NCBI GenBank assembly: GCA_019058365.1
Contig: JAHPZE010000001.1
Span: 1-64,000 of the forward strand
Origin: Promethearchaeota archaeon
GTDB lineage: Archaea; Asgardarchaeota; Lokiarchaeia; Sigyniarchaeales; SOKP01
Direction of reading: 5' to 3'
Length of the DNA: 64,000 nucleotides
Below are positions 5,721 through 22,209 of the stretch, in pieces. The notes below the pieces were generated by a model. That model saw only the letters and a list, made by a program, of their open reading frames with translations, had not been told where the DNA came from and did no database searches. Made by a program: the position numbers and the translations under genes. Position 1 is the first letter of the stretch; every line of letters starts with the position of its first letter.

Positions 5721-6671
5721 TTAAATATTGAATCCATCGTCAAATTCTTCCCATTCATCAGCCGCATAGTCAAATCTCTTCTTTTCCTCTTCTTTCTTTT
5801 CTCTCTTTAACTCACGACGCTCTTTAAGTTTCATTTTATCATATCTTTTAGTGTAAATCTGTTCATATTTTTCTCTTAACGCCTCAACATCCTCAACATG
5901 ACCTATCTTATTTTCCAACCCATCCTCAAAAAAATAGTTCCTTTTAAACTTTTTTGCAGGAATACCAGCATAAACGTATCCTCTTTCTAAAACCTGTCCT
6001 ACCGTAGTTACAGAATTAGCAGCTAAAATACAATTATGTTCAATATGGGTACCTGGCATAATTATGGCATGTGAACCTATTCTAACATCATCTCCGATAA
6101 TTGTTTTCCTAATTATTAAGAGATTACCTATAATTACAGCAGATTGAACAATTGCTCCTTGTCCAATAACTACATCTCTACCAAAATCGATGAACTCAGT
6201 ATCCACCCAACCCTCAAATAAGGAATTCGAAATTTTGGTTTTCACTCCAAACATTTTAAAACAAACATTATCTAAAAATCCAGGGAAAGGAAATCTGTGA
6301 GCAAGCCAAGTTGGCCACCTTTTTATAGTATTCCGAAGACTCCAATATCTATAATCTCGATCTTCAGGAATTCGTAAAAAAACTCCCTCTCGAGGTTTAT
6401 GGATTACATTAACAATAATTAATAAGATTTTAGCAAAAATTATGGAGGAAAAAACAAGTGTAACATACATCAGAAAAGCCAAAAGTGGAAGAAATGTATA
6501 AAAATGGATTGGTCTAATTGGATTCCATAAAAAACGCCAATAAATCCAAAATTCTAAGAGTATTGGAATTACACTTGCCCAAATAAGCAAGATATAAAAA
6601 ATCAAATATCGTTTTTTTACAAGAACCGATGCCGTGAAAGGACCAACTCGCATTGTATTAGGTACACTCAT
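5721..6671 (-). CDS. Membrane-bound LbH (hexapeptide repeat) acyltransferase-like protein, type C
   Basis: Two N-terminal TM helices, KPREGVF..DYRYW, IDFGRDVVIG..TIIGDDVRIG..YAGIPAK; overlaps upstream gene by 4 nt. Confidence 0.8.
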   Translation of the reverse strand: MSVPNTMRVGPFTASVLVKKRYLIFYILLIWASVIPILLEFWIYWRFLWNPIRPIHFYTFLPLLAFLMYVTLVFSSIIFAKILLIIVNVIHKPREGVFLRIPEDRDYRYWSLRNTIKRWPTWLAHRFPFPGFLDNVCFKMFGVKTKISNSLFEGWVDTEFIDFGRDVVIGQGAIVQSAVIIGNLLIIRKTIIGDDVRIGSHAIIMPGTHIEHNCILAANSVTTVGQVLERGYVYAGIPAKKFKRNYFFEDGLENKIGHVEDVEALREKYEQIYTKRYDKMKLKERRELKREKKEEEKKRFDYAADEWEEFDDGFNI

Positions 6672-8554
6672 TTCTCGCGCTCATCTTTTTTTATTTTAAC
6701 TAACTTTTTTTTATCTTCATCAATATTAACTTCATACGACATTTCAAATTTTTTTGCTTCAGCTACTTGACGTTTTATTATTATATCTCTTCTTTCTTCA
6801 GCATACTTATTCTCTTTCAATTTCCTCGCGGGGATTCCTAAATAAATCCAAGCGGGCTTTAAAGCTTGATCAAAGGTAGTTGAACTTATCGCCCCAATAA
6901 TAGATTCTTTTCCTATTATTGTTCCCGGAGAAATTGTAGTATGTCCTCCGACCATAACATAATCATCAAAAAACACTTTTTTAATTAGTAAGTATTTTCC
7001 GACGACCATTGAAGACATAATAGTCGCTCCTTGCCCGATCATTACTTTACGACCAAATTTAATAAAATCAGAATCACACCAAGCATCAGCTAAATGACTT
7101 GAAAAATCCATGTTAACTCCTAATTGTTTAAAAGCAAAAACATCTGTCCATGGAAATGGAGAATTTCGAAAAAGCCATAATGCAATTTTCTTTAATTCAG
7201 TTCTCAGCATCCAAAATTCAAAATTAGTATCTCTTTTCTCTGCTTTAAACACACCCTCCTTGGGTTTATGAATTAAATTTATTATAATCAAAAATAGTTT
7301 AGTAAAAAGAAGACATCCTGCAATAAAGATATATATTAGTCCAAACAAAGCAAACGGGAAGAAAAAGAAAAATGCCCATTGAAAGTTTGATGAAACTTGA
7401 GCTCTAGAATACCAATACCAAATTATGGTTACAATTAACCCCGAAAGCCAAAAAATAGGTAAATATACAATTAAAAACTTAATATTTACCCTACTTATTG
7501 CGGAACTTGTAGTGAAATCAATCGCTAAATCATCTGGTGATAAGTTATCAGTTATTATTTTATCTTCTTGGAGATCCCCCAGAATTTGGTCTCTATCAAG
7601 ACTTTCGGCCTCATTTTTCGGATAACGCTTCTTCTTTTTTATTTCTTTTAACAATTTTTCATCTTTATACCCTTCAATATTCTCATTCATCTCCAAATCT
7701 TTTGGGGTGACATCAAGATATTTTATAATTTTTTTTCTAAAGATTTTTCTCATAGGAAGTCCAAAATAGTAATTATTCTCTTTGATCTCACTATGTTTTG
7801 GGGTTGAAGCTAATGGTAATAGAAAAGCATTATCATATATCTCTGATCCTGGACCAATTCCACACATTGAAGCTAAAGTAACATTATTACCAACATTAAT
7901 TTTAAAATAAGAGATGTTTCCAAAGATTCCTTGAATTAGGTGACTAGCTAAAGTAGAATTTACACCAATATAACAGTTCTCTCCGATGTTAATAAATTTA
8001 TCATTTCCTACAGATTCCTCCAACGTTGTTCCTTTACCAATATTGTTTGACCCAACAAAATTAAAAAACCAATTAGATAACCATGGAAACATACCTTTTG
8101 TAAATGTATTTTTTCCATATTTTATCATAAAACTTCTTATATGATAGTAATTTGCTGTCCTACTTCTAATATTTCTTGGAATGATACCTGATTTTGATGG
8201 TGAAGTTTTTTCTGTAATTCCCCAAATAAACCATGTTGTTAATCCAATCAGAATTAAATGGAGTAAATAACAGCCAATTATGACTAATGGCATAATTATT
8301 AACGTTATTAGAGAACTTAAATTAGTAAAAAGAGATAAAAAACCAATATTTTGTAAAAAGAATATTCGAAAAGGGAAGAAAAAATATAGCCAAAATACAA
8401 ATCCTGGTATAACCCATGAAATATAATAGATAATAGCGAAAATAATAATATATAAATGAAATTGAAGACTTACTTCTTCTTTTATAACTTCATCATTAGG
8501 TTCACAGGAATCAGATGGTTTAATTTTTTTTATTTCTTCACTCATTTTTACCAT
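6668..8554 (-). CDS. Membrane-bound LbH acyltransferase-like protein, fused type A+B
   Basis: Two (2TM + hexapeptide-repeat) units; IGENCYIG..ASH in unit A; FGRKVMIG..YLGIPA in unit B. Confidence 0.8.
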   Translation of the reverse strand: MVKMSEEIKKIKPSDSCEPNDEVIKEEVSLQFHLYIIIFAIIYYISWVIPGFVFWLYFFFPFRIFFLQNIGFLSLFTNLSSLITLIIMPLVIIGCYLLHLILIGLTTWFIWGITEKTSPSKSGIIPRNIRSRTANYYHIRSFMIKYGKNTFTKGMFPWLSNWFFNFVGSNNIGKGTTLEESVGNDKFINIGENCYIGVNSTLASHLIQGIFGNISYFKINVGNNVTLASMCGIGPGSEIYDNAFLLPLASTPKHSEIKENNYYFGLPMRKIFRKKIIKYLDVTPKDLEMNENIEGYKDEKLLKEIKKKKRYPKNEAESLDRDQILGDLQEDKIITDNLSPDDLAIDFTTSSAISRVNIKFLIVYLPIFWLSGLIVTIIWYWYSRAQVSSNFQWAFFFFFPFALFGLIYIFIAGCLLFTKLFLIIINLIHKPKEGVFKAEKRDTNFEFWMLRTELKKIALWLFRNSPFPWTDVFAFKQLGVNMDFSSHLADAWCDSDFIKFGRKVMIGQGATIMSSMVVGKYLLIKKVFFDDYVMVGGHTTISPGTIIGKESIIGAISSTTFDQALKPAWIYLGIPARKLKENKYAEERRDIIIKRQVAEAKKFEMSYEVNIDEDKKKLVKIKKDEREK

Positions 8555-8655
8555 TGATTCTTATTACGAGGTATATATTTCGGTAATTTTTTCTTCATTA
8601 AAAAACAATTAATACTTATTATACTTTAATAGATATTTTTTTTTCTTTTAAAGTT

Positions 8656-9081
8656 ATGAGTCGTAGGCAAAAAGAAAAAACAACCATGTCAAATGATTGC
8701 GAAAATTGTGGAAAGTGTTGTATAGAGACAGAGATGATTCTTTCCGAATATGATATTGATTTGATAATAAGAAAATCTCAAGATCATGTAATAAAGCAAG
8801 ATTTTTGCTTTAAAAACAAGGATGAACATCATCAACTAAAAAATATTAAAGGACATTGTGTTTTTTTTGACTATCCATCAAAATTTTGTACGATTTATGA
8901 ATACCGTCCTCAAGGTTGCAGATTTTATCCATTAATTTTTGATATAAATGAATTAAAATGTAAACTTGATGAAGATTGCCCTAGAAATAATCTTTTCTAT
9001 CAAAATAAACAGGTTTTGAAAGTAAAGTGTGATCACTTAAAGAGATTTTTAAAGGAACAATTGAAAATAACTATAATTTAA
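8656..9081 (+). CDS. YkgJ family (CxxCxxCC) Fe-S/Zn cluster protein
   Basis: CENCGKCC, CVFF, CTIYEYRPQGCRFYP. Confidence 0.9.
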   Translation: MSRRQKEKTTMSNDCENCGKCCIETEMILSEYDIDLIIRKSQDHVIKQDFCFKNKDEHHQLKNIKGHCVFFDYPSKFCTIYEYRPQGCRFYPLIFDINELKCKLDEDCPRNNLFYQNKQVLKVKCDHLKRFLKEQLKITII

Positions 9082-9096
9082 AATATTAATGTTTTT

Positions 9097-10926
9097 TTAT
9101 GCGAATTCCTTTTTATCTTCATCAATATTGACTTCATGTTCAATTTCAAATTTCTTTTCTTCATCAACGTCCCGTTTCATAAGTATATCTCGACGTTCTT
9201 CGGAATATTTATTTTTTTTTAATTGAATGACAGGAATTCCAAAATAAATCCATCCAGGCTCAAGGATCTGATCATAGGTAGTCGTACTAAGAGCACCAAC
9301 TACTGAGTCCTTACCAACGATAGTTCCTGGGGCTACGATACTCTGACCTCCAATAACTACATAATCATCCAGAATGGTTTTTTTAATAATTAAATATTTC
9401 CCGACGACCATAGAGGACATAACAGTAGCACCTTGCCCTACAATTATTCTTCGTCCAAATTTAATAAATTCACCATCGCACCATGAGTCCCATAACGTAC
9501 TTGATAAATTCATTGTGATTCCGAACCATTTAAAAGCCAAAATGTCCATCCAAGGGAGAGGCCAATTTCGAATAAGCCAAAAAACTACTTTTTTTAATTC
9601 AGTCCGCAAACACCAAAACTCAAAATCAGAATCTCCTTTTTCAGCTTTAAATATTCCTTCTTTTGGTTTATGTATTAATTTAATTAATATTAAGAAAAGT
9701 TTGCTAAAGAAAAAACACCCTACAATGAATATAAACCACATAAAAATTAATATCGCTGGTAGAAAAAATGCCATTAAAACCCAGTTTTGAACATAATGCG
9801 TGAAAATGTGAAAGATTACGGTATCTAACATCCCAGAAAGCCAAAAAATTGGGAGATAGACAACTAAAAATTTTATATTTACTCTTGAAATTGCACTACT
9901 AGTAGTAAAATCAATTTTTAAATCTTTTTCATCTAAATTATTTAAATTAATATTTTCCTTCCTTAAGTCTCCGTTATCTAATACTGTCTTGGGTTTAGCT
10001 TCAGATTGCTTCGAAAGTTTCTGAGCTCTCAATTTTTTAAACAATTTTTTATCTTTGTAACTTCCAATACTTTCACCTTTCTCTAAATCATTTGGTGATA
10101 TTCTTAAAAAATTCATAATCTTCTTCCTGAAAATTTTTCTTAATGGCATGCCCCAGTAATAATTATTTCCTTTAATTACGCTATGTTTGGTAGTTGAGGC
10201 TAAAGGAAGTAAATAAGAATTATCATACGCTTCAGAACCGGGGCCTAAAACATTACTAGCTGCGGCAGTAAAATTATCTCCAGTTTTTACTTTAAAATAG
10301 GAGATGTTTCCAAAAATTCCCTCAATAACATGGCTAGCTAAAGCAGAATTAACTCCTATATAACAATTTCGCCCCACTTCAATAAATTTGTCACTAGTGA
10401 CAGATTCCTCCAAGGTAGTACCCTTTCCAATTTTGCTTGCGCCTATAAAATTAAAATACCAGTTGTTAAGCCATGGAAATGGTCCTTTCATAAACGCATT
10501 TTTTCCATATTTAATCATGAAACCTCTAATTTGATAATAATTTAATGTTTTACTTGGAAAATTTCTTGGTATAATCCCATCTTTACTGGGGGATCTTTTT
10601 TCAGTTAGATACCAAAAACCACGTGTAATTAAACCTATAAAAAATAGTCGAATAAGATAACAACCAATGAGGACTAAAGGCATAGAGATCAATGCTATCA
10701 TAGGTTTAAATTCAGTAAAAAGAGTTAAAAAACTTGAAGTTTCTAAAAAATTAGGTAAAAAAAAGAAAAATACATACACTAGAAAAACAATTGCTGGAAT
10801 AACTAATGAAGCCAGAAATATTGTGAAAAGCACAATAAGATACCAAAAATATTGAGTTTTAATTTCTTCCCTGATTTTATTCTTCTCTGGAACACTTTCA
10901 ATCGATGGTAATTCTGTAGTATCCAT
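9097..10926 (-). CDS. Membrane-bound LbH acyltransferase-like protein, fused type A+B (paralog of 6668..8554)
   Basis: Long shared blocks (SPSK.GIIPRN, IDFTTSSAISRVNIKFL, MSSMVVGKYL). Confidence 0.8.
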   Translation of the reverse strand: MDTTELPSIESVPEKNKIREEIKTQYFWYLIVLFTIFLASLVIPAIVFLVYVFFFFLPNFLETSSFLTLFTEFKPMIALISMPLVLIGCYLIRLFFIGLITRGFWYLTEKRSPSKDGIIPRNFPSKTLNYYQIRGFMIKYGKNAFMKGPFPWLNNWYFNFIGASKIGKGTTLEESVTSDKFIEVGRNCYIGVNSALASHVIEGIFGNISYFKVKTGDNFTAAASNVLGPGSEAYDNSYLLPLASTTKHSVIKGNNYYWGMPLRKIFRKKIMNFLRISPNDLEKGESIGSYKDKKLFKKLRAQKLSKQSEAKPKTVLDNGDLRKENINLNNLDEKDLKIDFTTSSAISRVNIKFLVVYLPIFWLSGMLDTVIFHIFTHYVQNWVLMAFFLPAILIFMWFIFIVGCFFFSKLFLILIKLIHKPKEGIFKAEKGDSDFEFWCLRTELKKVVFWLIRNWPLPWMDILAFKWFGITMNLSSTLWDSWCDGEFIKFGRRIIVGQGATVMSSMVVGKYLIIKKTILDDYVVIGGQSIVAPGTIVGKDSVVGALSTTTYDQILEPGWIYFGIPVIQLKKNKYSEERRDILMKRDVDEEKKFEIEHEVNIDEDKKEFA

Positions 10927-11058
10927 AAATATTTTTCCTTAAAAGAAACAATTTATAATTTTAAAGGTATAGGTATTAATTAAAATTTATTTTCTAAAAT
11001 ATTCATTGTTTTTTGAAAATATCTTATTTATTTTTGAGTTTTGATAAATAAAACAGCT

Positions 11059-12078
11059 CTATATTTGAACTATAGTTTTAATATGATCATTACTCATTTT
11101 ATAAGAGTTAAAAGCTTCAGTTATTTCATCTAATTTGAACTTCTTCGAAATTAATTGCCTAACTTGTATATTACCAGATTTTAAACCATCAATTGCTTTT
11201 TCAAATGGTCCACATCTACTGCTATAAAGCGTTAGTTCGCGAACAACAATATCAGTGAGATTAATTGGTGTTTCAAGTCCATGAGTGCTCTTTACATGAA
11301 TTTTTCCTCTAGTTCTGCAAGAAGCAACAATCTCCCTCAGTGCATTAGGATTACCAGTTGTATCAATTACAATATCAGCGCCTAAATTATTAGTCAGATT
11401 TATGATCTCATCGGAAACATCTTTACATGTCACCCTATTGATTAGATGATGAGCCCCAAATTGTTTTGCAAGATTAAGTTTTTTATCTGAACCATCTATA
11501 GCTATTAATGTTAATCCTTTAGATATTACTATTTGAGTTATTAATAATCCTAACTTTCCAAGACCAAATAATGCGATATTTTTATCATCTTTATCAATTG
11601 GCATCATTTCAAATGTTTGATAAGCTGCAGCGAGAGGTTCGATAAATGTAGCCTCATCGTAAGGGATTGTATCAGGAATTTCATGCAATAAATAAGAATC
11701 TAATGCAATATATTCTGCTAAAGCTCCATTTATATCAATCCCAATAGCTTTACGAGATACACATTGAGTATATAGCCCTTTTTTACAATAATAACAATTA
11801 AAATCAATATTGCTATTAATTTCTGAAGTGACTCTCTTATTTAACCAAGAATGACTAATTTTTGCACCTACTTTTACAACGTCTCCAGCAAATTCATGAC
11901 CTAGAATAATTGGAGTAGGCGTTGGCAAATGTCCGTTTGCGATTGCTAAATCTGTTCCACAAATTCCTACCGTTTTAACGCGAATTAAGGCTTGAGATTC
12001 TTTTATTTCTGGATCGAGTACATTTTTTATCGTTATTTTATTTCCATCATATACAGCTGCTTTCATATCAAACCACAA
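11059..12078 (-). CDS. Zinc-dependent alcohol dehydrogenase (MDR family)
   Basis: GICGTD, GHEFAG, EPLAA, GLGKLG, SRCGPF. Confidence 0.9.
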   Translation of the reverse strand: MWFDMKAAVYDGNKITIKNVLDPEIKESQALIRVKTVGICGTDLAIANGHLPTPTPIILGHEFAGDVVKVGAKISHSWLNKRVTSEINSNIDFNCYYCKKGLYTQCVSRKAIGIDINGALAEYIALDSYLLHEIPDTIPYDEATFIEPLAAAYQTFEMMPIDKDDKNIALFGLGKLGLLITQIVISKGLTLIAIDGSDKKLNLAKQFGAHHLINRVTCKDVSDEIINLTNNLGADIVIDTTGNPNALREIVASCRTRGKIHVKSTHGLETPINLTDIVVRELTLYSSRCGPFEKAIDGLKSGNIQVRQLISKKFKLDEITEAFNSYKMSNDHIKTIVQI

Positions 12079-12320
12079 AAGTTATTTATTGATACTTATT
12101 AATTGATACTTACTAATAACAAATTTCAATCTAGAAATAATAAAGAAATTAATATAAGTTCTAATAAAGATAAGTTACAGTTTAGAATAAATTTATAGAA
12201 TCTAAACAGAACTATTTTTTAATTAAATCTATTATATAATACAGAAATATGCACTTTTTTATATTTTCTATTTAACCAAAATTAAGTAGATTACATTTTT
12301 AAAGATTTAAAGGTGAAAAG

Positions 12321-12860
12321 ATGCAAAATAAACTATTACAATGGGAAATTTTGGGTATGGTTTTTGTTATTATCGTTGGATCTTTATTCCACTTTGTATT
12401 TGAATGGCTTTTTTCTTGGCCTCCTGTTGGGGCAATTACTGCAGTTAATGAAAGTGTGTGGGAACATCTAAAACTCCCCTATTGGCCGCTAGTAATATTT
12501 TCTTTAATCGAATATAAGTTTATAAAAGAAAAAGCAAATAATATTATCATTGCAAAAAGTCTCTCTGCTATAATAAGCATTGCTACCATTTTAATTATTT
12601 TTTACTCATATACAGCTATTCTTAGCACAGAAATTCTTATAATAGATATTTTAAGTTTCTATTTTGGTGTAATTATTGGTCAAGTAGTTAGCTATAAGAT
12701 TTTAACATTAAATAAGTTACCAAGATGGATAAGTATTATGTCGTGGATAATTATTTTAGGATTCGGACTTTCTTTAATAATATTTACCTATTTGCCACCA
12801 CACTTGCCCATATTTCAAGATTCTGAGTCTGGGTTATATGGTATTTTCCATTATATTTAA
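12321..12860 (+). CDS. Membrane protein, DUF6512-like
   Basis: GSLFHF, VNESVWEHLKL, TYLPPHLPIFQD; about 5 TM helices. Confidence 0.65.
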   Translation: MQNKLLQWEILGMVFVIIVGSLFHFVFEWLFSWPPVGAITAVNESVWEHLKLPYWPLVIFSLIEYKFIKEKANNIIIAKSLSAIISIATILIIFYSYTAILSTEILIIDILSFYFGVIIGQVVSYKILTLNKLPRWISIMSWIIILGFGLSLIIFTYLPPHLPIFQDSESGLYGIFHYI

Positions 12861-12988
12861 AACAAATAAATATTTTCGAAAAATAATATAATTCAATTTT
12901 TCCTTATTTATTCTAATTGGATTTTGAAAATATCGTTACTTTTAACCATTAATGTATTAAAATAGAACTTACAATGTAGGAGAATATT

Positions 12989-14629
12989 TTGGAATCTCAT
13001 GATTTTGATGAAAATGTTCAAAATAACTTCAATAAATCTTTTTCAGATATAAAAAGGACAAATTGGAAACATTGGCTTGAAATAGATTCTCGAGAGGAAT
13101 ATGAAGAATTATCATTAAAACTTTCGGGACTATCATCTATTGAAGATCTTTTCGATAGGATAAAATCTGAAACAACTGATTCTAGAAGTTTCTCAATAGA
13201 TTTAAATGATTTTCTAAATAGTGATAAAGCTTCTGAGCCATTAATTTTTTGTCATACGTCAGGAACTACAAACAGTAAATTATCGATGCTAAAATGGTTT
13301 CATATGTCAGAAGATATTGTTAAAAGACAATGGGTACCTGGCATGCAGGCAATTTTTGAATCGAGTGGTTTAGATTTAAATTCTTCTGCAATTATTTTTG
13401 TTCCTTCTAGATTGAAATTCGATGGGATTCAAAAACAGGGAGGAAAAGAATTTATTTCACTTTACTCGTCGGAATTTTCTCAAAGAATCATGCTATCCGT
13501 TATTAAACCAAAAGTATATCTGTTTTATGAATATAAAAATTCAAGAAACTTAGATATAATATCTAAAATTCTAACAATGGATAATATCTCAGTTATTTCT
13601 GCACCAGCATTAACAATTTTAGGATGGGCAGATATTATTAGACTTCAAGATGGGATAAAAAGGTCACTTGATTTAATAAATAAAATTCAAAATCCAAAAC
13701 TTGAAGACCTTCTATTAAAAATTGAAAAAAATGGATTAGTTAGTGCTTCAAAAGAAATTCAAAAAGAATTATCTCAAAAGATCTCAAAAGCAACTTTAGT
13801 ATTTAGTATAAGTTCACTATCAAAATCAGATTGGCAATTAATTCGTAAATTTATGAAATGGGAGGAGGGTAAAGAAAAATTTACAAATCTTTATGTTGCT
13901 TCTGAAATTGGTCCATTTGCCGCAAGTATAAGCAAGGGAGATTATGAACTTTCTCGATTAAATAAAATGTATATTTTTCCATTAACTCTTCCCGTAATAG
14001 ATCATAAAGGAAATAAAGAAGCAGTATCAAGAACGAAAAATAACATAGGTAAACTTTATGTTTCTCGACTTAATAAATCAGATGTTCTAATTAATATTGA
14101 CTTGGGTGATGTTATTTCTATTAAGAATCAGGAAGGTCTTCCCAAAATAGAAGGAAAAATTTTACGTTCAAGTTTTCAATTAAAATATCCAATAAACTTA
14201 TCAAAAAAAGTCTTAATAGACTCGCATTATAGAGTATTTGCTGGTGAATATTTTACTTTTTCTAATTTTGAAATTCAAAATCCACGATTTTTATTAAATT
14301 GTTTAAAAGAGAAATGTGACTTGAATATTGATTCTCTTTTATTAGTTAGAAAAAGCCAAGGTCCAGATAATTCGTGCAGGCTGTTTCTTTATTCCAATGA
14401 CAAGAGTAATTGTTATAATTTGAAGAATTATAGGAAAAAATTACTTGATTGCATTGCAAATGATAATTTTAAAGAAGCTATCTTAAATAATGAAATTAAA
14501 ATCGAATTAATTAATGAGAATCCAGTAGATTTTTTAGTGATGCGTTCAGAAGTCTTAGAAAAAGTTCGAAATGGTAAAAATCCTAAAGGAATTTTAAAAA
14601 AATGGCCATTTTATATAATAGAAGCATAA
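12989..14629 (+). CDS. Stand-alone adenylate-forming enzyme, GH3/LuxE/PaaK-like (ANL superfamily)
   Basis: P-loop HTSGTT, YVASEIG (YxxSE), IDLGDVI (GD) motifs in correct order. Confidence 0.65.
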   Translation: MESHDFDENVQNNFNKSFSDIKRTNWKHWLEIDSREEYEELSLKLSGLSSIEDLFDRIKSETTDSRSFSIDLNDFLNSDKASEPLIFCHTSGTTNSKLSMLKWFHMSEDIVKRQWVPGMQAIFESSGLDLNSSAIIFVPSRLKFDGIQKQGGKEFISLYSSEFSQRIMLSVIKPKVYLFYEYKNSRNLDIISKILTMDNISVISAPALTILGWADIIRLQDGIKRSLDLINKIQNPKLEDLLLKIEKNGLVSASKEIQKELSQKISKATLVFSISSLSKSDWQLIRKFMKWEEGKEKFTNLYVASEIGPFAASISKGDYELSRLNKMYIFPLTLPVIDHKGNKEAVSRTKNNIGKLYVSRLNKSDVLINIDLGDVISIKNQEGLPKIEGKILRSSFQLKYPINLSKKVLIDSHYRVFAGEYFTFSNFEIQNPRFLLNCLKEKCDLNIDSLLLVRKSQGPDNSCRLFLYSNDKSNCYNLKNYRKKLLDCIANDNFKEAILNNEIKIELINENPVDFLVMRSEVLEKVRNGKNPKGILKKWPFYIIEA

Positions 14630-14681
14630 TTATAAAAAAAAATAAAAAAAAATAATCTTTTTTCTATATTATTTTGGTTAA

Positions 14682-15521
14682 TTAAGCTGGACTAAATACT
14701 CCTGCGAATACTAACCATGCTAGAAAAGTTTTAGATACAAGACTCAAAAGTTGATATACTCTTTCACCGTACAGATAATCTTTCCACTTTCCTACTCCTT
14801 TATATTGCAATATCATGTTGATAGCGAATGTATTAAAGAAGAACAATTCAATTCCGTATATTAGGTAGACAAATAGTGGTACTTCTCCTCCAATGGTTTC
14901 AGTACTTATAAAATACGCAGTAATAACAATCCAAGGAACGGCTCCAGCAATAACACCTAAATAATATGGACCCCATTTAACTTTTTCACCTTTTTCTCTC
15001 GTATATACATTGTATGATTCCATCATTAAACCAAACATATTCATCAGAGCATTTAAGACAAAAATCATAAACAATGACCAGAAATCCCACACTCCAAAAA
15101 AAATAGCGATTAAGAAAATCATCACGGAACTTGAAAAAGCGTACTCAAACCAACGTACCTTATTTATTCCTCTTTTTAAATTTCTAATATAACTTTTATT
15201 GAGCGGGTAAGCAATTAACAGATGAGCAATAGCAGACATTAATAAAAAGGATCCAACAAATGCCCCTAAAGCGCTAAAAACAAAGAGTATTGTAGGGTTA
15301 GGCGAAATAACAAAGTCTGGTCCAACAAGTTCAAACTTAAGGTAAAAAGTGTAAATGTCCCTAGAAAAAGCTAGTTGAGGTAAAAAGCCAAAAAGCACCA
15401 TTAGTAAACCTTGCACTAAATGTAAAATACCCATATTACGATTGAATCTTTTTAGATATTCAAATGATATTGGAGATTTTGGTATTAACCAACCTTCTTC
15501 TGATTTTTCTATAGAGTTCAT
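14682..15521 (-). CDS. heR: Heliorhodopsin
   Basis: 7 TM; LHLVQG, SAIAH, RWFEYAFSSSVM (R-E counterion), GERVY..LSLVSK with retinal-binding Lys. Confidence 0.93.
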   Translation of the reverse strand: MNSIEKSEEGWLIPKSPISFEYLKRFNRNMGILHLVQGLLMVLFGFLPQLAFSRDIYTFYLKFELVGPDFVISPNPTILFVFSALGAFVGSFLLMSAIAHLLIAYPLNKSYIRNLKRGINKVRWFEYAFSSSVMIFLIAIFFGVWDFWSLFMIFVLNALMNMFGLMMESYNVYTREKGEKVKWGPYYLGVIAGAVPWIVITAYFISTETIGGEVPLFVYLIYGIELFFFNTFAINMILQYKGVGKWKDYLYGERVYQLLSLVSKTFLAWLVFAGVFSPA

Positions 15522-15645
15522 AGGTTAAAATATTATAAATTAGTTTTTAACTTGTATGTCTAAAAATTATAAGTTCATTAAATAAATACATTAAATGGAA
15601 GAAAAAAAAATTTGTTAATTAATAAAATATAGATAAATTAGGAGA

Positions 15646-16047
15646 TTATATCCAAACTGCTAATATTAATCCAGCAATTATAAAACCTACAAGATAAAAA
15701 CTGTATTCCATTAGAAAAAGTTTAAATCCTCTATCATTAAAATTAGTTTGGTTTATAGCGATTGTAGCTACAAATCCAATCCATAAAAGTAGGTTAAGTA
15801 GCAATGCAGAAACGATATCGTTCATGCCCGTTAATTCCATCATTATCGTGATGAAAAGAACAGTTATAAAACTAGTTGGAATCATTATTATAGTATCTCG
15901 AATAATTTTAGATTTAGGTTCACTTTCTTTTCCAACTAATTTAAGCCATAAATTACCGAATGCTGAAGGAAAGTACCAAAAAAAATGGATTGCAAAATAT
16001 GTCAATGTAACAACTACAACGGCTAACCAATTTATGTCAAGAGCCAT
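15646..16047 (-). CDS. DUF1761-like small membrane protein
   Basis: INWLAVVV..WY..FGNLW N-terminus, 4 TM. Confidence 0.75.
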   Translation of the reverse strand: MALDINWLAVVVVTLTYFAIHFFWYFPSAFGNLWLKLVGKESEPKSKIIRDTIIMIPTSFITVLFITIMMELTGMNDIVSALLLNLLLWIGFVATIAINQTNFNDRGFKLFLMEYSFYLVGFIIAGLILAVWI

Positions 16048-16164
16048 TTCATCACCATTAAATTGATTTTCAAATTGAAATTATAATTTTAAAGAACTAA
16101 ATAATTAAACAATATTTATTTATTTTTTATTTAAAATATAAATAAAAATTAAAGTGAAATCAAA

Positions 16165-16641
16165 TTGAAAGATAAATTCAATTTAGTTGGTACTAAGATC
16201 GCTGAGTTTAGTTTACCAAACTCTAGAGGTGAAACAATCAACATCAGAGATTTTGAAAATAAAAAAAATGTAATAATTGTGCTATTTAGAGATATCAATT
16301 GACCTTTCTGTCGATGGCATGCTGCTAGATTAAGAAGAGACATTGAAAAATTTGAAAAATTAGATGGGTTTTTGTATCCAATCTTAGTAGATAATGAAAA
16401 AAATGCTCAAAAAATGGAACAAAAATATGCAAGAAAGTACGCTGTTTTTTATGATGAATCAAAAAAAGTCGCTGCTATGTTAAAGCAAGAAATAAAGTTG
16501 GTTAAACTGGGTCGTATGCCTGGATTATTAGTAATTGACAAGGAAGGAATAATTAAATACGCATATTACGGGAAAAATATGCATGACATTCCAGAAAACG
16601 ATGAAATTTTACAAGTTCTTGAAAAGATTAATAAAAAATAA
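16165..16641 (+). CDS. Peroxiredoxin-like (AhpC/TSA, thioredoxin fold) selenoprotein, UxxC motif, 158 aa
   Basis: TTG 16165 in frame with ORF 16372..16641; in-frame TGA 16300-16302 gives VIIVLFRDIN-U-PFC; EFSLPNSRGETI and LVIDKEGIIKYAY are Prx/redoxin motifs. Confidence 0.88.
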
Positions 16642-16752
16642 TGATTTGGTGGGAATAAAATAAAAAAAATGAGATTTTATTCTTTAAAGTTAGCCACACT
16701 TTTCCAAATCAAAATTGTTTTCATATAGATTTCATATAATTAAAAAGATTCT

Positions 16753-17553
16753 TCATTTTAATTTTACAATGGGATTATAAAATTCTACACGTCGGTTCTC
16801 AAATAGATCATTGAACTCATTGAGTTTTTTATCTCTAGCTTTTTGAATATCAATATCGATTATAACGACATAATTTTTATCCTCTGGAGCTGATGATAAA
16901 ATTTCTCCATCATAAGAGGTTATTTGACTTTTACCAGTAAATTTAAAACGGTCATCTCCTCTTTTTTCTTCACCTATTCTATTTGAAGTTATTGCAAATA
17001 CCCGATTTTCTATACATCTCGTAATCATTGCCTTTTGACAATACGGAAGGACTAGATTTGCAGGATGAGCAATAATATCTGCACCTAAAAGAGCAAGGAT
17101 TCGCGTTGTTTCTGGAAAAATCCAGTCAAAACAAATCATAATTCCTACTTTTACTCCATCTACATTAAACACTTTTAAGGGTTTGTTTCCCGGTGAAAAC
17201 CACAGTTTTTCTTTATAATATAAATGTATTTTCCGGTATGAACCGATCACTCCTTTATTTGAAACCATTATTCCAGCATTGTATACTTTTTCTCCTTCTT
17301 TTTCGATAAATCCGCCAATAACTATTGCTCCAGTCGATTGAGCAATATTTATGAGAAATTGAGCAGTTTCACCCTCTTGACTTTCTGCTAATGATACTGC
17401 TTCTTTTTTAGAAACAAAAGTATAACCCGTCGCAAATAATTCTGGTAATACTAGTAAATCTGCTTTTATGCCAGATATCAGTTTTTCAATTTCTTCAAAA
17501 TTATATTTTTTATCCCCAAATAGTGGAGATGTTTGGATATATCCAATTTTCAC
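16753..17553 (-). CDS. Carbon-nitrogen hydrolase (nitrilase/amidase superfamily)
   Basis: E-K-C triad: LPELF, YRKIHL, ICFDW; directly downstream of the LbH operon. Confidence 0.92.
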   Translation of the reverse strand: MKIGYIQTSPLFGDKKYNFEEIEKLISGIKADLLVLPELFATGYTFVSKKEAVSLAESQEGETAQFLINIAQSTGAIVIGGFIEKEGEKVYNAGIMVSNKGVIGSYRKIHLYYKEKLWFSPGNKPLKVFNVDGVKVGIMICFDWIFPETTRILALLGADIIAHPANLVLPYCQKAMITRCIENRVFAITSNRIGEEKRGDDRFKFTGKSQITSYDGEILSSAPEDKNYVVIIDIDIQKARDKKLNEFNDLFENRRVEFYNPIVKLK

Positions 17554-17555
17554 TT

Positions 17556-18431
17556 TTAATCACTTTTGATCTCTTTATCCTTACGCACAGTATATAATCC
17601 TTCAAATCTTGCTTCTGTTTTAATTTCACCTATTCCTTGATTTTTAATAATCTCTTCCAATCCATCTTCAGAGAATACATTTTTTTTAAACTTTTTGGCT
17701 GGAGCCCCTAAATAAATCCAATTCTCTTCTAATTCTTGCCCTACGGTGGTCATTGAATGACCCCCTAAAATACAATTTTTTTTCATATACGTTCCAGGCA
17801 TAACAACACTTTGGGTACCAATCATAACATTATCTTCAATGATGGTTTTTCTTATGATAAATAAATTTCCAAAAATAACGGATGACTGGACTATTGCCCC
17901 CTGTCCAACTACAACATTTTTTCCAAAATCAATGAATTCTGTATCAACCCATCCTTCAAATAAAGAGTTGGAGTAGTTAGTTTTTATACCAAACATTTTA
18001 AAACATATATTATTCATAAAAGGAAAAGGAAACTTGTGTGATAGCCATAAGGGCCATTTTTTTATAGTACTTCTAAGACTCCAATATCTATAATCTTTAT
18101 CTGAGTGATGTCTTAAGAACACTCCTTCTCGTGGTTTATGAATAAGATTAATGATTACTAAAATCATTTTGGCAAAGAATAATGATACTAAAATTGATGT
18201 TAGATACATTACAAAAACTAAAAAAGGTAATAAAAGTAAGAAATGAATGAATACTTTCGGTTCAGTAAGTGTAGGACCGTACAGCCAATTCCAATACAAC
18301 CAAAATTCAAACTGTATTGTAAAAATGCTAATCCAAATTAAAAAGATATAAAAGATTAAATATCTTTTCTTGGCTAAGATAAGAGTTGTATTTGGTCCTA
18401 CTTTTAAACTCGAAGGTACTGACATAATCAT
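17556..18431 (-). CDS. Membrane-bound LbH acyltransferase-like protein, type C
   Basis: Paralog of 5721..6671 (MSVP..VGP, SNSLFEGWVDTEFIDFG). Confidence 0.8.
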   Translation of the reverse strand: MIMSVPSSLKVGPNTTLILAKKRYLIFYIFLIWISIFTIQFEFWLYWNWLYGPTLTEPKVFIHFLLLLPFLVFVMYLTSILVSLFFAKMILVIINLIHKPREGVFLRHHSDKDYRYWSLRSTIKKWPLWLSHKFPFPFMNNICFKMFGIKTNYSNSLFEGWVDTEFIDFGKNVVVGQGAIVQSSVIFGNLFIIRKTIIEDNVMIGTQSVVMPGTYMKKNCILGGHSMTTVGQELEENWIYLGAPAKKFKKNVFSEDGLEEIIKNQGIGEIKTEARFEGLYTVRKDKEIKSD

Positions 18432-19336
18432 TAATCCTCTATATTATTATTCAAGAGTTTTTTCTTATCTTCATCTATATTGACTTCTTGTTTAATTTCA
18501 TATTTTATTTCATCATCTACACGGACTTCATATATAACATCGCGTCTTTGTTCTGCATATTTATTTGGTTTTAATTTCCTAGCAAAATGTGGGCCTAAAT
18601 AAATCCAACCAGGTTCTATTTTTTGGTTTGGAATTGTCGCAGAAAATGCTCCAATCACAGATTCCTTACCCATAATTGTGCCGGGAGATATAAGTGATAA
18701 CCCACCTACAACCGTGTGATCTCCAAGAAAAATCTTTTTGATTATCAAATATTTCCCGACGATCTGAGAGCTCATTACAACAGCTCCTTGGCCTACAGTA
18801 ACATTTCTCCCAAATTCAATAAATCTTTCATCCACCCAAGAATCTTGAGCATGGCTTGAAAAATCTACCTTAATACCCATCCATCTGAAGCCCCACATTA
18901 CTATCCATGTTAAAGGGCCATTATTCATAAACCAAAAAACTATCTTTTTCAACTCTACTCTTAATCTCCAAAATTCATAGTCTCGATCCCCTTCTTCGGC
19001 TCTGAAGACTCCCTCTTTTGGCTTATGAAGCATATTTACTATAAGAATAAATGCTTTTGTAAAAATTGCGATTCCAAATACGAAAATAAAATATAATACA
19101 AATAACCATACAGGGATTAAAAACATATTTATATACCACGGAATATAACTTGATACATCAAAGAATACAGCAACAGTCATATATCCGGAAAGCCACAGAA
19201 TTGGGAGATATAAAACAAGAAATTTATAACCAATTTTACTTATTGCACTCGTAGTTACAAAATCGATTGTATAATCTACTTTGCTATCATCAAATCTTTC
19301 TTTTTCAGGATTAGAATTCATTTGCTTTTTTAACAC
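18431..19336 (-). CDS. Membrane-bound LbH acyltransferase-like protein, stand-alone type B
   Basis: Matches C-terminal half of the AB fusions (IDFVTTSAIS, HKPKEGVF..EFW.LR.ELKK, EVNIDEDKKK). Confidence 0.8.
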   Translation of the reverse strand: MLKKQMNSNPEKERFDDSKVDYTIDFVTTSAISKIGYKFLVLYLPILWLSGYMTVAVFFDVSSYIPWYINMFLIPVWLFVLYFIFVFGIAIFTKAFILIVNMLHKPKEGVFRAEEGDRDYEFWRLRVELKKIVFWFMNNGPLTWIVMWGFRWMGIKVDFSSHAQDSWVDERFIEFGRNVTVGQGAVVMSSQIVGKYLIIKKIFLGDHTVVGGLSLISPGTIMGKESVIGAFSATIPNQKIEPGWIYLGPHFARKLKPNKYAEQRRDVIYEVRVDDEIKYEIKQEVNIDEDKKKLLNNNIED

Positions 19337-20246
19337 TTGTTTCTTTTTTATTTTTTTTTTTTATATTCAGTTTTTTATTAAGTTCTTCTGCTCTTTTTAA
19401 ATCTTCTTCTGAGATTTTTAAATATTCTATTACTTTTTTTTTAAAAATCTTTCTAAGGGGTGTACCGTAATAAAAGGAATTCCCTTTCAAAATATTATAT
19501 TTAGTTGCTCCTGTCATAGGTAACCACCATGAATTATCTCCAATATCAATACCAGGGGCAAAACAATTAAATCCCGCAGCAGTAACATTGTTTCCGATTT
19601 TTATTTTTGCAAACGATATATTACCGAAAACACCTTCTACAGAATGTGAACTGATGCCTGGATTTGTTCCTATATAAGAATTTTTTCCAACTTCTACAAA
19701 TCGATCTCCCGCAAGTTGTTCCTCAATGACAGACCCTTTTCCTATTTTATTCGTCCCTATGAAGTTATACATCCAATTTAATAACCAGGGAAATGGACCA
19801 CGAGAAAAGGCATTTTTTGGATACTTGATAATAAAACTACGAAAATGATAATAATTTAACGTCTTGCTAGGTATATTTCTTGGTATGATCCCAGATTTAG
19901 AAGGAGATTTTTTTTCTGAGTATCTCCAAAACCATCGAGTTATTATAGCTACAATAAATAGATGTATCAAATAGCAAATAATAATTACAATGGGTATCGA
20001 TATTGAAGCAATAAGAGAGGGTAAATTAGTAAAAAGTGAAATAAAGTTTGATACTTCTAAGAAATTTGGTAGATAAAAAAACATTATAAAAAGCATGAAA
20101 ATAATACTTGGTATTAAAAATGAACAGTAATAAATGACGTAGAACAAAGGCAGCCATAAACGTAAATTTAAACTAATCTCTTCTTTAATAATATTGTTTT
20201 CAGAATCCTTTTTTTGCTCTGAATTTAATACAGCCAAGTTTTTCAC
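19311..20246 (-). CDS. Membrane-bound LbH acyltransferase-like protein, stand-alone type A
   Basis: Matches N-terminal half of the AB fusions (SPSKSGIIPRN, SSHSVEGVFGNIS, YYGTPLRKIF). Confidence 0.8.
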   Translation of the reverse strand: MKNLAVLNSEQKKDSENNIIKEEISLNLRLWLPLFYVIYYCSFLIPSIIFMLFIMFFYLPNFLEVSNFISLFTNLPSLIASISIPIVIIICYLIHLFIVAIITRWFWRYSEKKSPSKSGIIPRNIPSKTLNYYHFRSFIIKYPKNAFSRGPFPWLLNWMYNFIGTNKIGKGSVIEEQLAGDRFVEVGKNSYIGTNPGISSHSVEGVFGNISFAKIKIGNNVTAAGFNCFAPGIDIGDNSWWLPMTGATKYNILKGNSFYYGTPLRKIFKKKVIEYLKISEEDLKRAEELNKKLNIKKKNKKETSVKKANEF

Positions 20247-20376: not shown

Positions 20377-21201
20377 TTATCTATTCTTTTTTGGAAACCA
20401 TGGGAAAAGCAAACTTGTTCTTCTTTTATAATCAGCATAGACATCATCACCTTCATAATGTTTATCAAGCAGTTTTATACCTGAGACTTTTATTATCATA
20501 TAAGTAATGAATATCGGTCCAAAAATTGAAATCCAACCAAAAGGTACAGCTAGAACAATGATATAAATTCCCCACCATTGAGTGACTTCACCAAAATAGT
20601 TTGGATGCTGCGTATATTTCCATAATCCTAGATCTAATACTTTCCCTTTATTATTTGGATCTTGTTTGAATTTATAGAGCTGATAATCTCCAAATGTTTC
20701 AAATAAGAATCCTATTAACCATACTATTAAGCCAATCCATAAAGTAAGTCCAATAAAATCTAATAAGCTCACCAATACAGGGTTTGGACTCATATTGACA
20801 AACCAAACGGGGAAAGCTACTATAAAAATCACAATACCTTGAAAAATGTAGATTCTTATCAAACTTTTCAGAAAGATATTAGTTTTCCATCTTTCTCTCA
20901 TTTCTCTATATCTGTAATCTTCTGGTTTCCCTCGGTTTCTAATGAATACATATGAAGCAAGTCTTATTGACCATATGATTACTAAAACCGTAACTACTAT
21001 TTGGCGAACATTTACAGCATTATTTAAAATAATAAAGTAAATTATGCTTGTCAAGGCAACTACAGAATATCCAGGCCCATAGAAGATATCCATAATACCA
21101 TTATTTTTTTTTATTATACCAACTATAAAAGCTATTATAAGATATACTAAAAGAAACAAAGCAGAGTTTCCAATGATAACGAACATATTTACTATTGTCA
21201 T
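20377..21201 (-). CDS. DUF1295 family membrane protein (steroid 5-alpha-reductase-like)
   Basis: EDYRY, GDYQL, GLWKYTQHPNYFGE, RTSLLFPWFP. Confidence 0.9.
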   Translation of the reverse strand: MTIVNMFVIIGNSALFLLVYLIIAFIVGIIKKNNGIMDIFYGPGYSVVALTSIIYFIILNNAVNVRQIVVTVLVIIWSIRLASYVFIRNRGKPEDYRYREMRERWKTNIFLKSLIRIYIFQGIVIFIVAFPVWFVNMSPNPVLVSLLDFIGLTLWIGLIVWLIGFLFETFGDYQLYKFKQDPNNKGKVLDLGLWKYTQHPNYFGEVTQWWGIYIIVLAVPFGWISIFGPIFITYMIIKVSGIKLLDKHYEGDDVYADYKRRTSLLFPWFPKKNR

Positions 21202-21283: not shown

Positions 21284-21321
21284 AAAAATTAGTAATTCAA
21301 ATCTGAATTTTCGTTTAAGTA
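21284..21321. repeat. 38-bp imperfect direct repeat, left copy
   Basis: aaaaattagtaattcaaatctgaattttcgtttaagta; 35/38 identical to 22307..22344. Confidence 0.8.
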
Positions 21322-21785
21322 GAATTTTCTTTGTTCGAATTTCCTAATAAATTATTTTTGAATTTTCTCAATATTGCTTCTTTAAAAGAATCAAAATCTT
21401 TCAAATTGTTCTGTAAGATATTGTAGATAATCTTATTATCAATTTCTAAATAAAATTGCCCTAATAAATTACGGAATCTTACCATTTTAATAAAGTGAGT
21501 TTTTAATTCATTACTTATAATTTCATGCTTAGCTAAGATTTCTATTATATCAGTAAATGTTTCAGGTTTTTCTTTATTATTGAGTGTCACAATATGATTT
21601 CCAATGTCAATACATATATTTATAGAAATTTCTAAGGCTCTCTGTGCCGTGAAATAATTTTTATAGTTAGAAAGGAAGTCTTCTTTTCCGATCTCTTTAA
21701 GTTCGCGTAGATTTTCCATTAATTGATCTAATTTATTAAATCTAGTTAAAATTAAATCCCTATTTACTTTAATCCTTAAGCACAT
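21315..21785 (-). CDS. hepT: HepT-like HEPN ribonuclease toxin (DUF86), catalytic His substituted
   Basis: AQRALEISINICIDIGNH, FRNLLGQFY (canonical RNxxxHxY). Confidence 0.85.
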   Translation of the reverse strand: MCLRIKVNRDLILTRFNKLDQLMENLRELKEIGKEDFLSNYKNYFTAQRALEISINICIDIGNHIVTLNNKEKPETFTDIIEILAKHEIISNELKTHFIKMVRFRNLLGQFYLEIDNKIIYNILQNNLKDFDSFKEAILRKFKNNLLGNSNKENST

Positions 21786-22209
21786 CCATTACTGTCATTT
21801 TATCATACATATCTAAAATTGGTTTTATCTCTAAATAATCGTATAAAACTTTTATTTCAAACTCATGCTGCAGCGTTTCATTTTTGGAATGAATAACACT
21901 TCCTGTTTTTATAACATTATATAAAAATCGAGGTGTAACGCTGTTTAAAATACATAAATCTATCTCGATTTTATGTTCAAATTCTTTCTCTATTTCCAAA
22001 CTTAAATCAACTAGATATAAATAATGTTTTTTAAATGTACTATCTAAAAGAATTCCAAGATCTACGTCACTAAATTCAGATCTGTTACCTAATACATAAG
22101 ACCCAAACAAATAACACAGTAGAATTTCATCTCGATTATTAAACACAATATTTATTATCTTTTCCAGTTCAGTTATCGATATTATTCTATGTCTTTCTCG
22201 TTCTATCAT
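21769..22209 (-). CDS. mntA: MntA-like minimal nucleotidyltransferase antitoxin
   Basis: YLFGS-x10-DVD motif; overlaps HEPN gene. Confidence 0.88.
   Translation of the reverse strand: MIERERHRIISITELEKIINIVFNNRDEILLCYLFGSYVLGNRSEFSDVDLGILLDSTFKKHYLYLVDLSLEIEKEFEHKIEIDLCILNSVTPRFLYNVIKTGSVIHSKNETLQHEFEIKVLYDYLEIKPILDMYDKMTVMDVLKD

Follow-up and report, generated by a model that had tools for sequence, protein, structure and literature searches.

Epsilon-poly-L-lysine synthetase (Pls) and delta-poly-L-ornithine synthetase (PosA) are single-module non-ribosomal peptide synthetases (NRPSs), in which an adenylation and a thiolation domain precede one terminal domain of about 700 amino acids (aa). 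This C-terminal domain joins a basic amino acid iteratively through isopeptide bonds and thus makes antimicrobial polycations that are used industrially; to our knowledge, no structure of it has been solved and its catalytic residues have not been established. Literature searches on Pls cryo-EM, on the domain model TIGR02353 and on Asgard membrane proteins with a left-handed beta-helix (LbH) returned no paper reporting a solved structure of the Pls terminal domain, and none on stand-alone or split forms of its transmembrane (TM) hairpin-LbH units, referred to below as TM-LbH units. Such split forms are described here in Promethearchaeota archaeon (assembly GCA_019058365.1), a member, of Lokiarchaeia type, of Asgard, the archaeal lineage closest to eukaryotes. 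The window, that is the whole stretch of DNA that was analysed, comprises the first 64,000 nucleotides (nt) of contig JAHPZE010000001.1, named C16 in this study (C16:1-64000); the assembly amounts to 4.74 Mb with 30% G+C and is 100% complete. The sets of genes termed A, B and C in this window are probably carrier-independent hetero-trimeric membrane acyltransferases, built like the terminal domain of Pls and PosA and related to it by homology.

Three types of TM-LbH unit

Eight units, each consisting of two TM helices and an LbH domain, are carried by six genes of the window and fall into three types:

19311-20246, minus strand: A3, type-A subunit (2 TM + LbH), with the sole candidate catalytic His, H201; identified from its open reading frame and type assignment
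18431-19336, minus strand: B3, type-B subunit (2 TM + LbH), with Ser at the position of the catalytic His
17556-18431, minus strand: C3, type-C subunit (2 TM + LbH), with Ser at the position of the catalytic His
6668-8554, minus strand: AB1, 628 aa, in which a type-A unit and a type-B unit are naturally fused
5721-6671, minus strand: C1, type-C subunit translationally coupled to AB1
9097-10926, minus strand: AB2, second A+B fusion, 609 aa, without a type-C gene of its own

A first-pass annotation of this DNA had described six genes of this build in three types, and both the reading frames and the types hold. Indeed, an all-against-all BLASTP comparison of the eight units separates them cleanly, with identities of 50-59% among A units, 51-61% among B units and 60% for C with C; B and C share 34-42%, and A shares 19-27% with B or C. 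The homology of the three types nevertheless extends over the whole unit, TM helices included, as measured by profile-profile comparison of orthologue alignments (A with C at a probability of 99.7 and E 2e-26; B with C at E 2e-72). In every unit, a long hydrophobic hairpin occupies the first ~100 residues and is followed by Hexapep/LbH matches. The hexapeptide model PF00132 is at or above its Pfam gathering score in AB1, C1 and C3, and remains below threshold in AB2, B3 and A3 (24.6, 23.7 and 17.3 bits vs 27). The LbH domain of the latter three proteins is recognized because of their full-length homology to the other types and, in the case of type A, also because of a HMMER alignment to LacA and LpxD. 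At the structural level, Foldseek returned matches to maltose acetyltransferase (MAT), galactoside acetyltransferase (GAT) and CysE with a probability of 1.0 and target template modelling scores (TMt) of 0.55-0.58, as expected for the LbH fold. The loops between TM1 and TM2 are nearly uncharged and K/R-rich segments follow TM2 in the units, a pattern that would fit, by the positive-inside rule, an in-in topology with cytoplasmic LbH domains. The genes are tightly packed: the successive spacings of A3, B3, C3 and a hydrolase gene described below are -26, -1 and +2 nt, and a 4-nt ATGA overlap joins AB1 and C1.

Homology to the terminal domain of Pls and PosA

The direct matches of the window proteins to TIGR02353 are weak and unspecific. 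The search was therefore run in reverse: the query was a profile built from 29 units of types B and C, and the database contained 1.84 billion representative proteins. This profile matches P0381, an NRPS of the Pls/PosA type (1713 aa) and the one that it ranks highest among these, in three stretches at E 1.4e-19, and the best of these covers profile positions 20-257, thus including the TM hairpin. P0381 associates AMP-binding and PP-binding domains with a TIGR02353 match of 471 bits, above the cut-off of that model. Also found with the profile are bacterial stand-alone proteins of 650-683 aa made of three units, which score 157-184 bits with TIGR02353 and are devoid of adenylation and thiolation domains; a form fused to a short-chain dehydrogenase/reductase (SDR) was likewise returned. 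As a side observation, the contig of P0381 (L077:3333-8474) also bears DER1 and SNARE genes, and is therefore probably eukaryotic.

The correspondence can be followed unit by unit. Using HHalign, the B/C profile aligns onto unit 1 of P0381, TM helices included, with a probability of 96.1 and E 3e-9, and the A profile aligns onto unit 3 with a probability of 96.9 and E 1.5e-10, a His-x-x-Glu motif being conserved. The hidden Markov models of the individual types rank the three units of P0381 as C-like, C-like and A-like, and this succession agrees with the cyclic order B-C-A. The His-bearing type A corresponds in this way to unit 3 of Pls.

The same arrangement is apparent in predicted structures. 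The AlphaFold2 (AF2) model of a natural C-A-B fusion is compact, with a mean predicted local distance difference test (pLDDT) of 78.9 and a predicted template modelling score (pTM) of 0.80, and each of its units runs through two long helices, a strand, two helices and the LbH. A published model of the PosA terminal domain has the same order of elements, its three beta-helices being packed together above six bent membrane helices (PMC10522769). Both systems share therefore a repeating unit composed of TM hairpin, strand, two helices and LbH, and in both of them three non-identical units follow one another in the same cyclic order (TM1-2/C1, TM3-4/C2 and TM5-6/C3 in Pls/PosA). In the ESM Atlas, the nearest non-Asgard shapes to the C-A-B model are clusters of Pls/PosA NRPSs, at template modelling scores of 0.46-0.50 over 430-485 aligned residues; the matches in the PDB are limited to single soluble LbH domains of the MAT/GAT type. 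Fungal clusters combining PP-binding and Hexapep domains also turn up in this Atlas fold search.

Because of the reverse profile search, of the HHalign alignments that include the TM helices, and of the comparison between the C-A-B model and PosA, the likeness of the ABC sets to Pls/PosA is considered as a real homology of the whole module, beyond generic LbH similarity. The resemblance to the NRPS terminal domain put forward by the first-pass annotation is in this respect borne out, as a specific homology accompanied by architectural equivalence. The two systems differ nevertheless in their packaging. The Pls/PosA module is a single domain placed behind adenylation and thiolation domains, whereas in the window the ABC units are spread over two to three genes and the proteins that carry them have neither of these domains. 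Fused forms of more than 1100 aa were sought with AB1 and none was found, which is weak evidence.

Cyclic order of the subunits and candidate active site

All the 707 detectable relatives of C3 of similar length belong to metagenome-assembled genomes (MAGs) of Promethearchaeota (Asgard), in which they bear hypothetical or generic names. In a sample of the phylum comprising 201 genomes, the TM-LbH family is present in 40 of the 40 genomes of the window's own family and in the three genomes of the sister family (3/3). Three further Asgard families hold weaker relatives, and single distant units were also detected in Helarchaeota and Thermoplasmata MAGs. The genomes of the window's family carry many copies each, namely three to four paralogous sets in addition to divergent pairs and single units. 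The further loci of the present genome are the following:

C16:234255-236745: C-A fusion followed by B
C9:65200-66807: pair of divergent TM-LbH units
C46:130848-131648: single A-like unit

An unannotated family with several paralogous sets per genome points to an unrecognised modification of the membrane or envelope, or to an unrecognised secreted product.

The A-B-C order announced by the first-pass annotation is kept, as A, B, C or as AB, C, in all of the 20 loci fetched from eight genera, and a lone AB gene comparable to AB2 occurs in relatives as well. Other arrangements involve different fusions. A C-A fusion followed by B forms a two-gene unit kept in 10 genomes of seven genera, B followed by a C-A fusion was also seen, and full natural C-A-B fusions are represented by P0241 (797 aa) and P0243. 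Every arrangement seen (A,B,C; AB,C; B,CA; CA,B; CAB) is a rotation of the cyclic order A-B-C-A. A single cyclic order is expected if the units form a closed ring of three members, in which the C-terminus of each adjoins the N-terminus of its successor. The hetero-trimer of A, B and C that had been proposed is thus strongly implied by the invariance of this order and by the occurrence of fusions at two distinct junctions. In the corresponding model, the paralogous subunits A, B and C would most likely be assembled, as one copy of each (1:1:1), in a pseudo-threefold ring of fixed handedness, with six bent membrane helices lying below three left-handed beta-helices that would face the cytoplasm. 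Such a ring would represent the C1-C2-C3 'polymerisation' module of Pls/PosA, split into separate genes and standing alone.

The same gene order could in principle be that of a pathway, if A, B and C were three independent membrane LbH acetyltransferases, each forming a homotrimer and modifying successive positions of one glycan or lipid head-group substrate. The solved LbH acyltransferases, those matched here in the PDB among them, are as a rule homotrimers, and the sister family manages with two types only. This alternative is nevertheless quite improbable, as independent enzymes would hardly account for A-B, C-A and C-A-B fusions that all follow one cyclic order, the fused relatives of the Pls/PosA family combine three units that are not identical within a single chain, and the single-chain C-A-B model, with its pTM of 0.80, is compact. 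Moreover, the catalytic His common to A and LacA is missing from B and C.

This residue, H201 of A3, belongs to the motif S-S-H-x-V-E-G and is invariant in 22 type-A orthologues. In a HMMER alignment, it falls on His115 of the E. coli galactoside acetyltransferase LacA (1kqa), the catalytic base of this enzyme. The MAT/GAT His is present in type A only, the same match state being occupied by Ser in B and by Ser or Ala in C, and this suggests one active site per A-B-C trimer. In P0381, unit 1 has Ser at this state and unit 3 has His, as part of H-x-x-E; among the stand-alone triples of bacteria, the His is located in unit 2 or in all three units. The ABC ring would accordingly possess a single active site, built around a His of the maltose/galactoside acetyltransferase type at an interface of A, while B and C would act as structural or substrate-shaping subunits. 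The LbH fold is common to ABC and to the acyltransferases of the MAT, LacA and LpxD type, the type-A His aligns with that of LacA, and the use of an acyl thioester donor at a subunit interface, as in these enzymes, is expected for ABC. In contrast, the solved enzymes of the MAT/LacA type are soluble homotrimers with three active sites, whereas the three ABC subunits are unlike one another, each bears a membrane hairpin, and one only carries the His.

The lack of the canonical His in two subunits out of three would also be compatible with a mainly non-catalytic role, the ABC sets being then a scaffold, a channel or a sensor made of degenerate LbH modules. Subunits resembling gamma-carbonic anhydrase are structural parts of mitochondrial complex I, and the best PDB sequence matches of C3 include gamma-carbonic-anhydrase-like proteins, among them complex I subunits. 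Such a role is very improbable in view of the invariant His-x-x-Glu that type A keeps at the position of a proven catalytic base; furthermore, the LbH parts of B and C conserve no His triad of Zn ligands, and the sole characterised relatives are enzymes. The reading of these proteins as gamma-carbonic anhydrases was rejected on the basis of this missing triad.

Several points weigh against an account of the ABC sets as Pls/PosA-like acyltransferases with one active site. The direct TIGR02353 scores of the window proteins, 25-60 bits (59.5 bits in two stretches for AB1), are far below the cut-off of 423.1, and ordinary LbH proteins score with this model too, in 14 control genomes out of 14. Since it matches LbH proteins in all of these controls, the raw TIGR02353 matches were set aside as evidence of homology. 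Both structural comparisons, moreover, use predicted models. Subunits B and C hold other conserved His residues (in HKPxEG after TM2, H132 in C and H162 in B), so that the notion of one active site could be wrong. The complete genomes of the sister family hold only two types, A plus one B/C-like type (A+X pairs), a form carried by cultured Lokiarchaeia, and the stoichiometry can accordingly not be taken as constant across the group; this restriction to A+X makes the split between B and C look like a later duplication. Finally, the donor and the acceptor of the reaction are pure inference. As for the prediction of the A3+B3+C3 complex with alignments, which gave a score of 0.85 for partner A vs 0.77 for the control, it is not used as evidence either way.

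As a naturally split version of the Pls/PosA module that stands alone, the ABC sets offer, with three distinguishable subunits of which a single one carries the acetyltransferase-type His, a simple handle on the mechanism of this module and on its catalytic unit.

Carrier, adenylating enzyme and neighbouring genes

Three other genes of the window have to be considered as potential partners of the ABC sets:

16753-17553, minus strand: C-N hydrolase (nitrilase superfamily), 2 nt downstream of C3; PF00795 at E 1e-46
12989-14629, plus strand: divergent 546-aa protein of the ANL superfamily (acyl-CoA synthetases, NRPS adenylation domains and luciferases), PaaK/GH3/DdaG-like, identified by its AF2 fold and invariant motifs
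20377-21201, minus strand: DUF1295 membrane protein (steroid-reductase/ICMT-like clan); PF06966 at E 7e-69

The first-pass annotation had assembled the ABC proteins, the adenylating enzyme and the amidase in a disassembled Pls-like machine, while remarking that no carrier domain was visible in the window. This remark holds for the whole of this complete genome, in which no match to PF00550 (PP-binding) was found, nor to PF01648 (ACPS, phosphopantetheinyl transferase). A thiotemplate cycle like that of Pls therefore cannot run as such, and the acyl donor would probably be a thioester free to diffuse, of the acyl-CoA type, in which the pantetheine arm would mimic that of the thiolation domain. 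The acceptor would be an amine or a hydroxyl of a membrane-embedded, lipid-linked or exported molecule, perhaps exported through the six-helix bundle. Different specificities would be provided by the paralogous sets (ABC, AB+C, lone AB, CA+B, divergent pairs and singles).

Modules without carrier are also found in bacteria. The bacterial stand-alone triples, for example a protein from an Elusimicrobiota MAG, are matched by the Asgard profile at E 1e-20 to 1e-39 and consist likewise of three TM hairpin + LbH units without adenylation or thiolation domain; they differ from the ABC sets by being one fused chain and, as mentioned above, by the location of the His. One of these triples (L075:8001-16407) is surrounded by genes for a GT1 glycosyltransferase, a GMC oxidoreductase, an SDR and dTDP-sugar enzymes; another (L074:1626-5562) by those of a FemAB-like protein and of two EamA half-transporters. 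The variety of these contexts suggests that the stand-alone module may serve varied acyl-transfer tasks.

The 546-aa protein itself has the fold that had been attributed to it. Among Pfam and NCBIfam models, PF00501 and PF03321 included, none matches this protein at E <= 0.01, a chance-level match to EnY2 at E up to 5 being the sole hit. Its AF2 model (pLDDT 88.7) displays nevertheless a two-domain ANL fold, for which Foldseek returned PaaK1, BT_0428 and GH3 at E 6e-11 to 1e-10 with a probability of 1.0, and its neighbours according to the Atlas language model are GH3/PaaK/CapK/DdaG-like clusters. The TSGT loop (S91-G92-T93), E306, D374, R393 and the C-terminal K533 are invariant in its family. 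The two-domain fold, the TSGT P-loop and K533 as the equivalent of the catalytic Lys are shared with the PaaK/GH3/DdaG-type enzymes, from which the protein differs by its lack of a match to any family model. The identification of a GH3/ANL adenylating enzyme at this locus is borne out by this PaaK/GH3-like modelled fold and by the intact motifs. The family, which is restricted to Asgard MAGs and wholly unannotated, defines an unannotated ANL family.

The association of this enzyme with the ABC sets is another matter. Its gene is located on the opposite strand, behind DUF6512, and genes for ADH, heliorhodopsin and DUF1761 intervene. It was found in 26 of the 41 genomes of the window's family; the 15 others, several of which are 99-100% complete, keep ABC. 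In the sister family, it was found in none of the 14 genomes searched (0/14), though TM-LbH sets are kept there. The gene is present in four out of four genomes of another family, where no TM-LbH unit occurs within the 4-9 kb fetched on either side; in one of these genomes, which was searched whole, the TM-LbH units lie ~2.5 Mb away from it. A distance of 1-6 kb between the gene and ABC sets is restricted to genus g1 and to part of genus g4, and this closeness is compatible with inherited synteny. The conserved co-occurrence of A, B and C with the adenylating enzyme across Asgard genomes, on which its inclusion in the machine depended, is consequently not observed, its distribution being patchy. 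The 546-aa ANL gene is best described as a lineage-specific neighbour of ABC with a weak link to it.

A similar situation prevails for the amidase. The C-N hydrolase is a genuine member of the nitrilase superfamily, with 159.8 bits for PF00795 (cut-off 23.2) and a triad E38-K108-C141 that is intact and placed in canonical motifs, as read from the sequence; its score with NF040852, the equivalog model of the archaeal nitrilase, is 298 bits, under the cut-off of 500. The gene follows unit C in six of the six loci of genus g1 and in none of the 14 loci examined elsewhere. It is thus a genus-level addition to the operon, a lineage-specific neighbour rather than a core part, and its inclusion in a common machine is not supported.

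These distributions bear directly on the polymerase reading of the first-pass annotation. In this scenario, an amino acid would be activated in trans by the 546-aa ANL enzyme, as adenylate or CoA thioester; the ABC ring would link the residues into an isopeptide or polyamide and thread the chain out through its six-helix bundle, and the product would be trimmed or recycled by the nitrilase-family amidase. The true homology of ABC to a module whose only characterised function is polymerisation speaks in its favor, together with the ANL fold and intact adenylation motifs of an enzyme encoded 1-6 kb from ABC sets in some genera, the translational coupling of the amidase to C3, and the presence, at another locus of the genome, of a second, unrelated ANL enzyme (AMP-binding, 591 aa) whose gene immediately follows a single A-like unit. 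It has however to contend with an ANL gene forming a separate unit, patchily distributed and remote from TM-LbH in another family, with an amidase linked in one genus only, and with a genome where neither thiolation domain nor phosphopantetheinyl transferase was found. In addition, the AMP-binding/PIG-L/MFS_2 surroundings of the single A-like unit are not kept in other genera, and the bacterial triples reside in dTDP-sugar/glycosyltransferase or FemAB-like/EamA contexts without NRPS parts. Enzymes of the PaaK/GH3/DdaG type can moreover complete CoA-ligase or amide-ligase reactions alone, which counts against the ANL protein as a partner of ABC. This polymerising assembly is consequently unlikely, and no result obtained requires it. 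From the disassembled Pls-like machine of the first-pass annotation, the homology to Pls, the hetero-trimer and the ANL fold are retained; the linkage of the ANL enzyme and of the amidase is not, and the carrier and its phosphopantetheinyl transferase are missing.

A related proposal, unlikely to the same extent, dispenses with the carrier. The ABC rings would be carrier-independent polymerases, to which ANL enzymes, the 546-aa protein for example, would supply diffusible thioesters (aminoacyl or acyl) or adenylates, and would export a surface polyamide or another repeating acyl polymer, as a minimal, split and ancestor-like form of Pls/PosA. If this were true, the Pls/PosA module would lead an existence independent of NRPS chemistry in the archaea most closely related to eukaryotes.

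Under the preferred reading of ABC as a carrier-independent acyltransferase, the protein of the DUF1295 family, which resembles lipid enzymes, would be a frequent accessory. The copy at 20377-21201 is the sole full-length one in the genome. Its orthologues adjoin an ABC set in at least 15 of the about 19 family genomes that have one, in variable relative positions, and about half of the family is without orthologue. DUF1295 is thus a frequent neighbour of the ABC sets and the most widely linked of their accessory genes. The comparison of loci across genera revealed no partner gene conserved beyond ABC. In other genera, the neighbours are unrelated housekeeping genes (UvdE, PNPOx-like, PHP, zf-AN1 and ribonucleotide reductase genes), and an acyl-CoA dehydrogenase adjoins CA+B in some genera only. 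The MFS_2, metallophosphoesterase, AMP-binding and PIG-L genes located beside other loci of this genome are not kept in the sister family or in genus g3.

These other loci deserve a short description. At C46:130848-135923 (L033), the genes that come after the A-like unit encode a classical 591-aa AMP-binding enzyme, a deacetylase of the PIG-L family and a transporter of the MFS_2 type, a layout that recalls N-acylation by a deacetylase and then an LbH enzyme (LpxC/LpxD logic). At C16:232718-236745 (L031), the C-A fusion and B are directly upstream of an MFS_2 transporter, and at C9:63598-66807 (L032) a metallophosphoesterase of 533 aa comes after the pair of divergent units.

Within the window, a putative Fe-S/Zn protein with a CxxCxxCC motif (PF03692) is encoded between AB1 and AB2 at 8656-9081 on the plus strand, and is also found beside AB genes in three relatives (genera g4 and g6). 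An intact heliorhodopsin gene (14682-15521, minus strand; PF18761 at E 1.7e-85) lies between the ANL gene and DUF1761, and is syntenic in several relatives. Between DUF1295 and a ribonucleotide reductase gene, a pair made of a HepT-like RNase and an MNT nucleotidyltransferase, of the toxin-antitoxin type, occupies positions 21315-22209 on the minus strand and is shared with some relatives only. The ribonucleotide reductase, of class II, is encoded on the plus strand at 22637-24883 by an open reading frame of 748 aa; its counterparts in relatives reach 1084-1590 aa (L042:546-3809, L058:1-4770 and L059:7464-12227), and their BLAST match is broken into two to three pieces, which suggests intein-like insertions.

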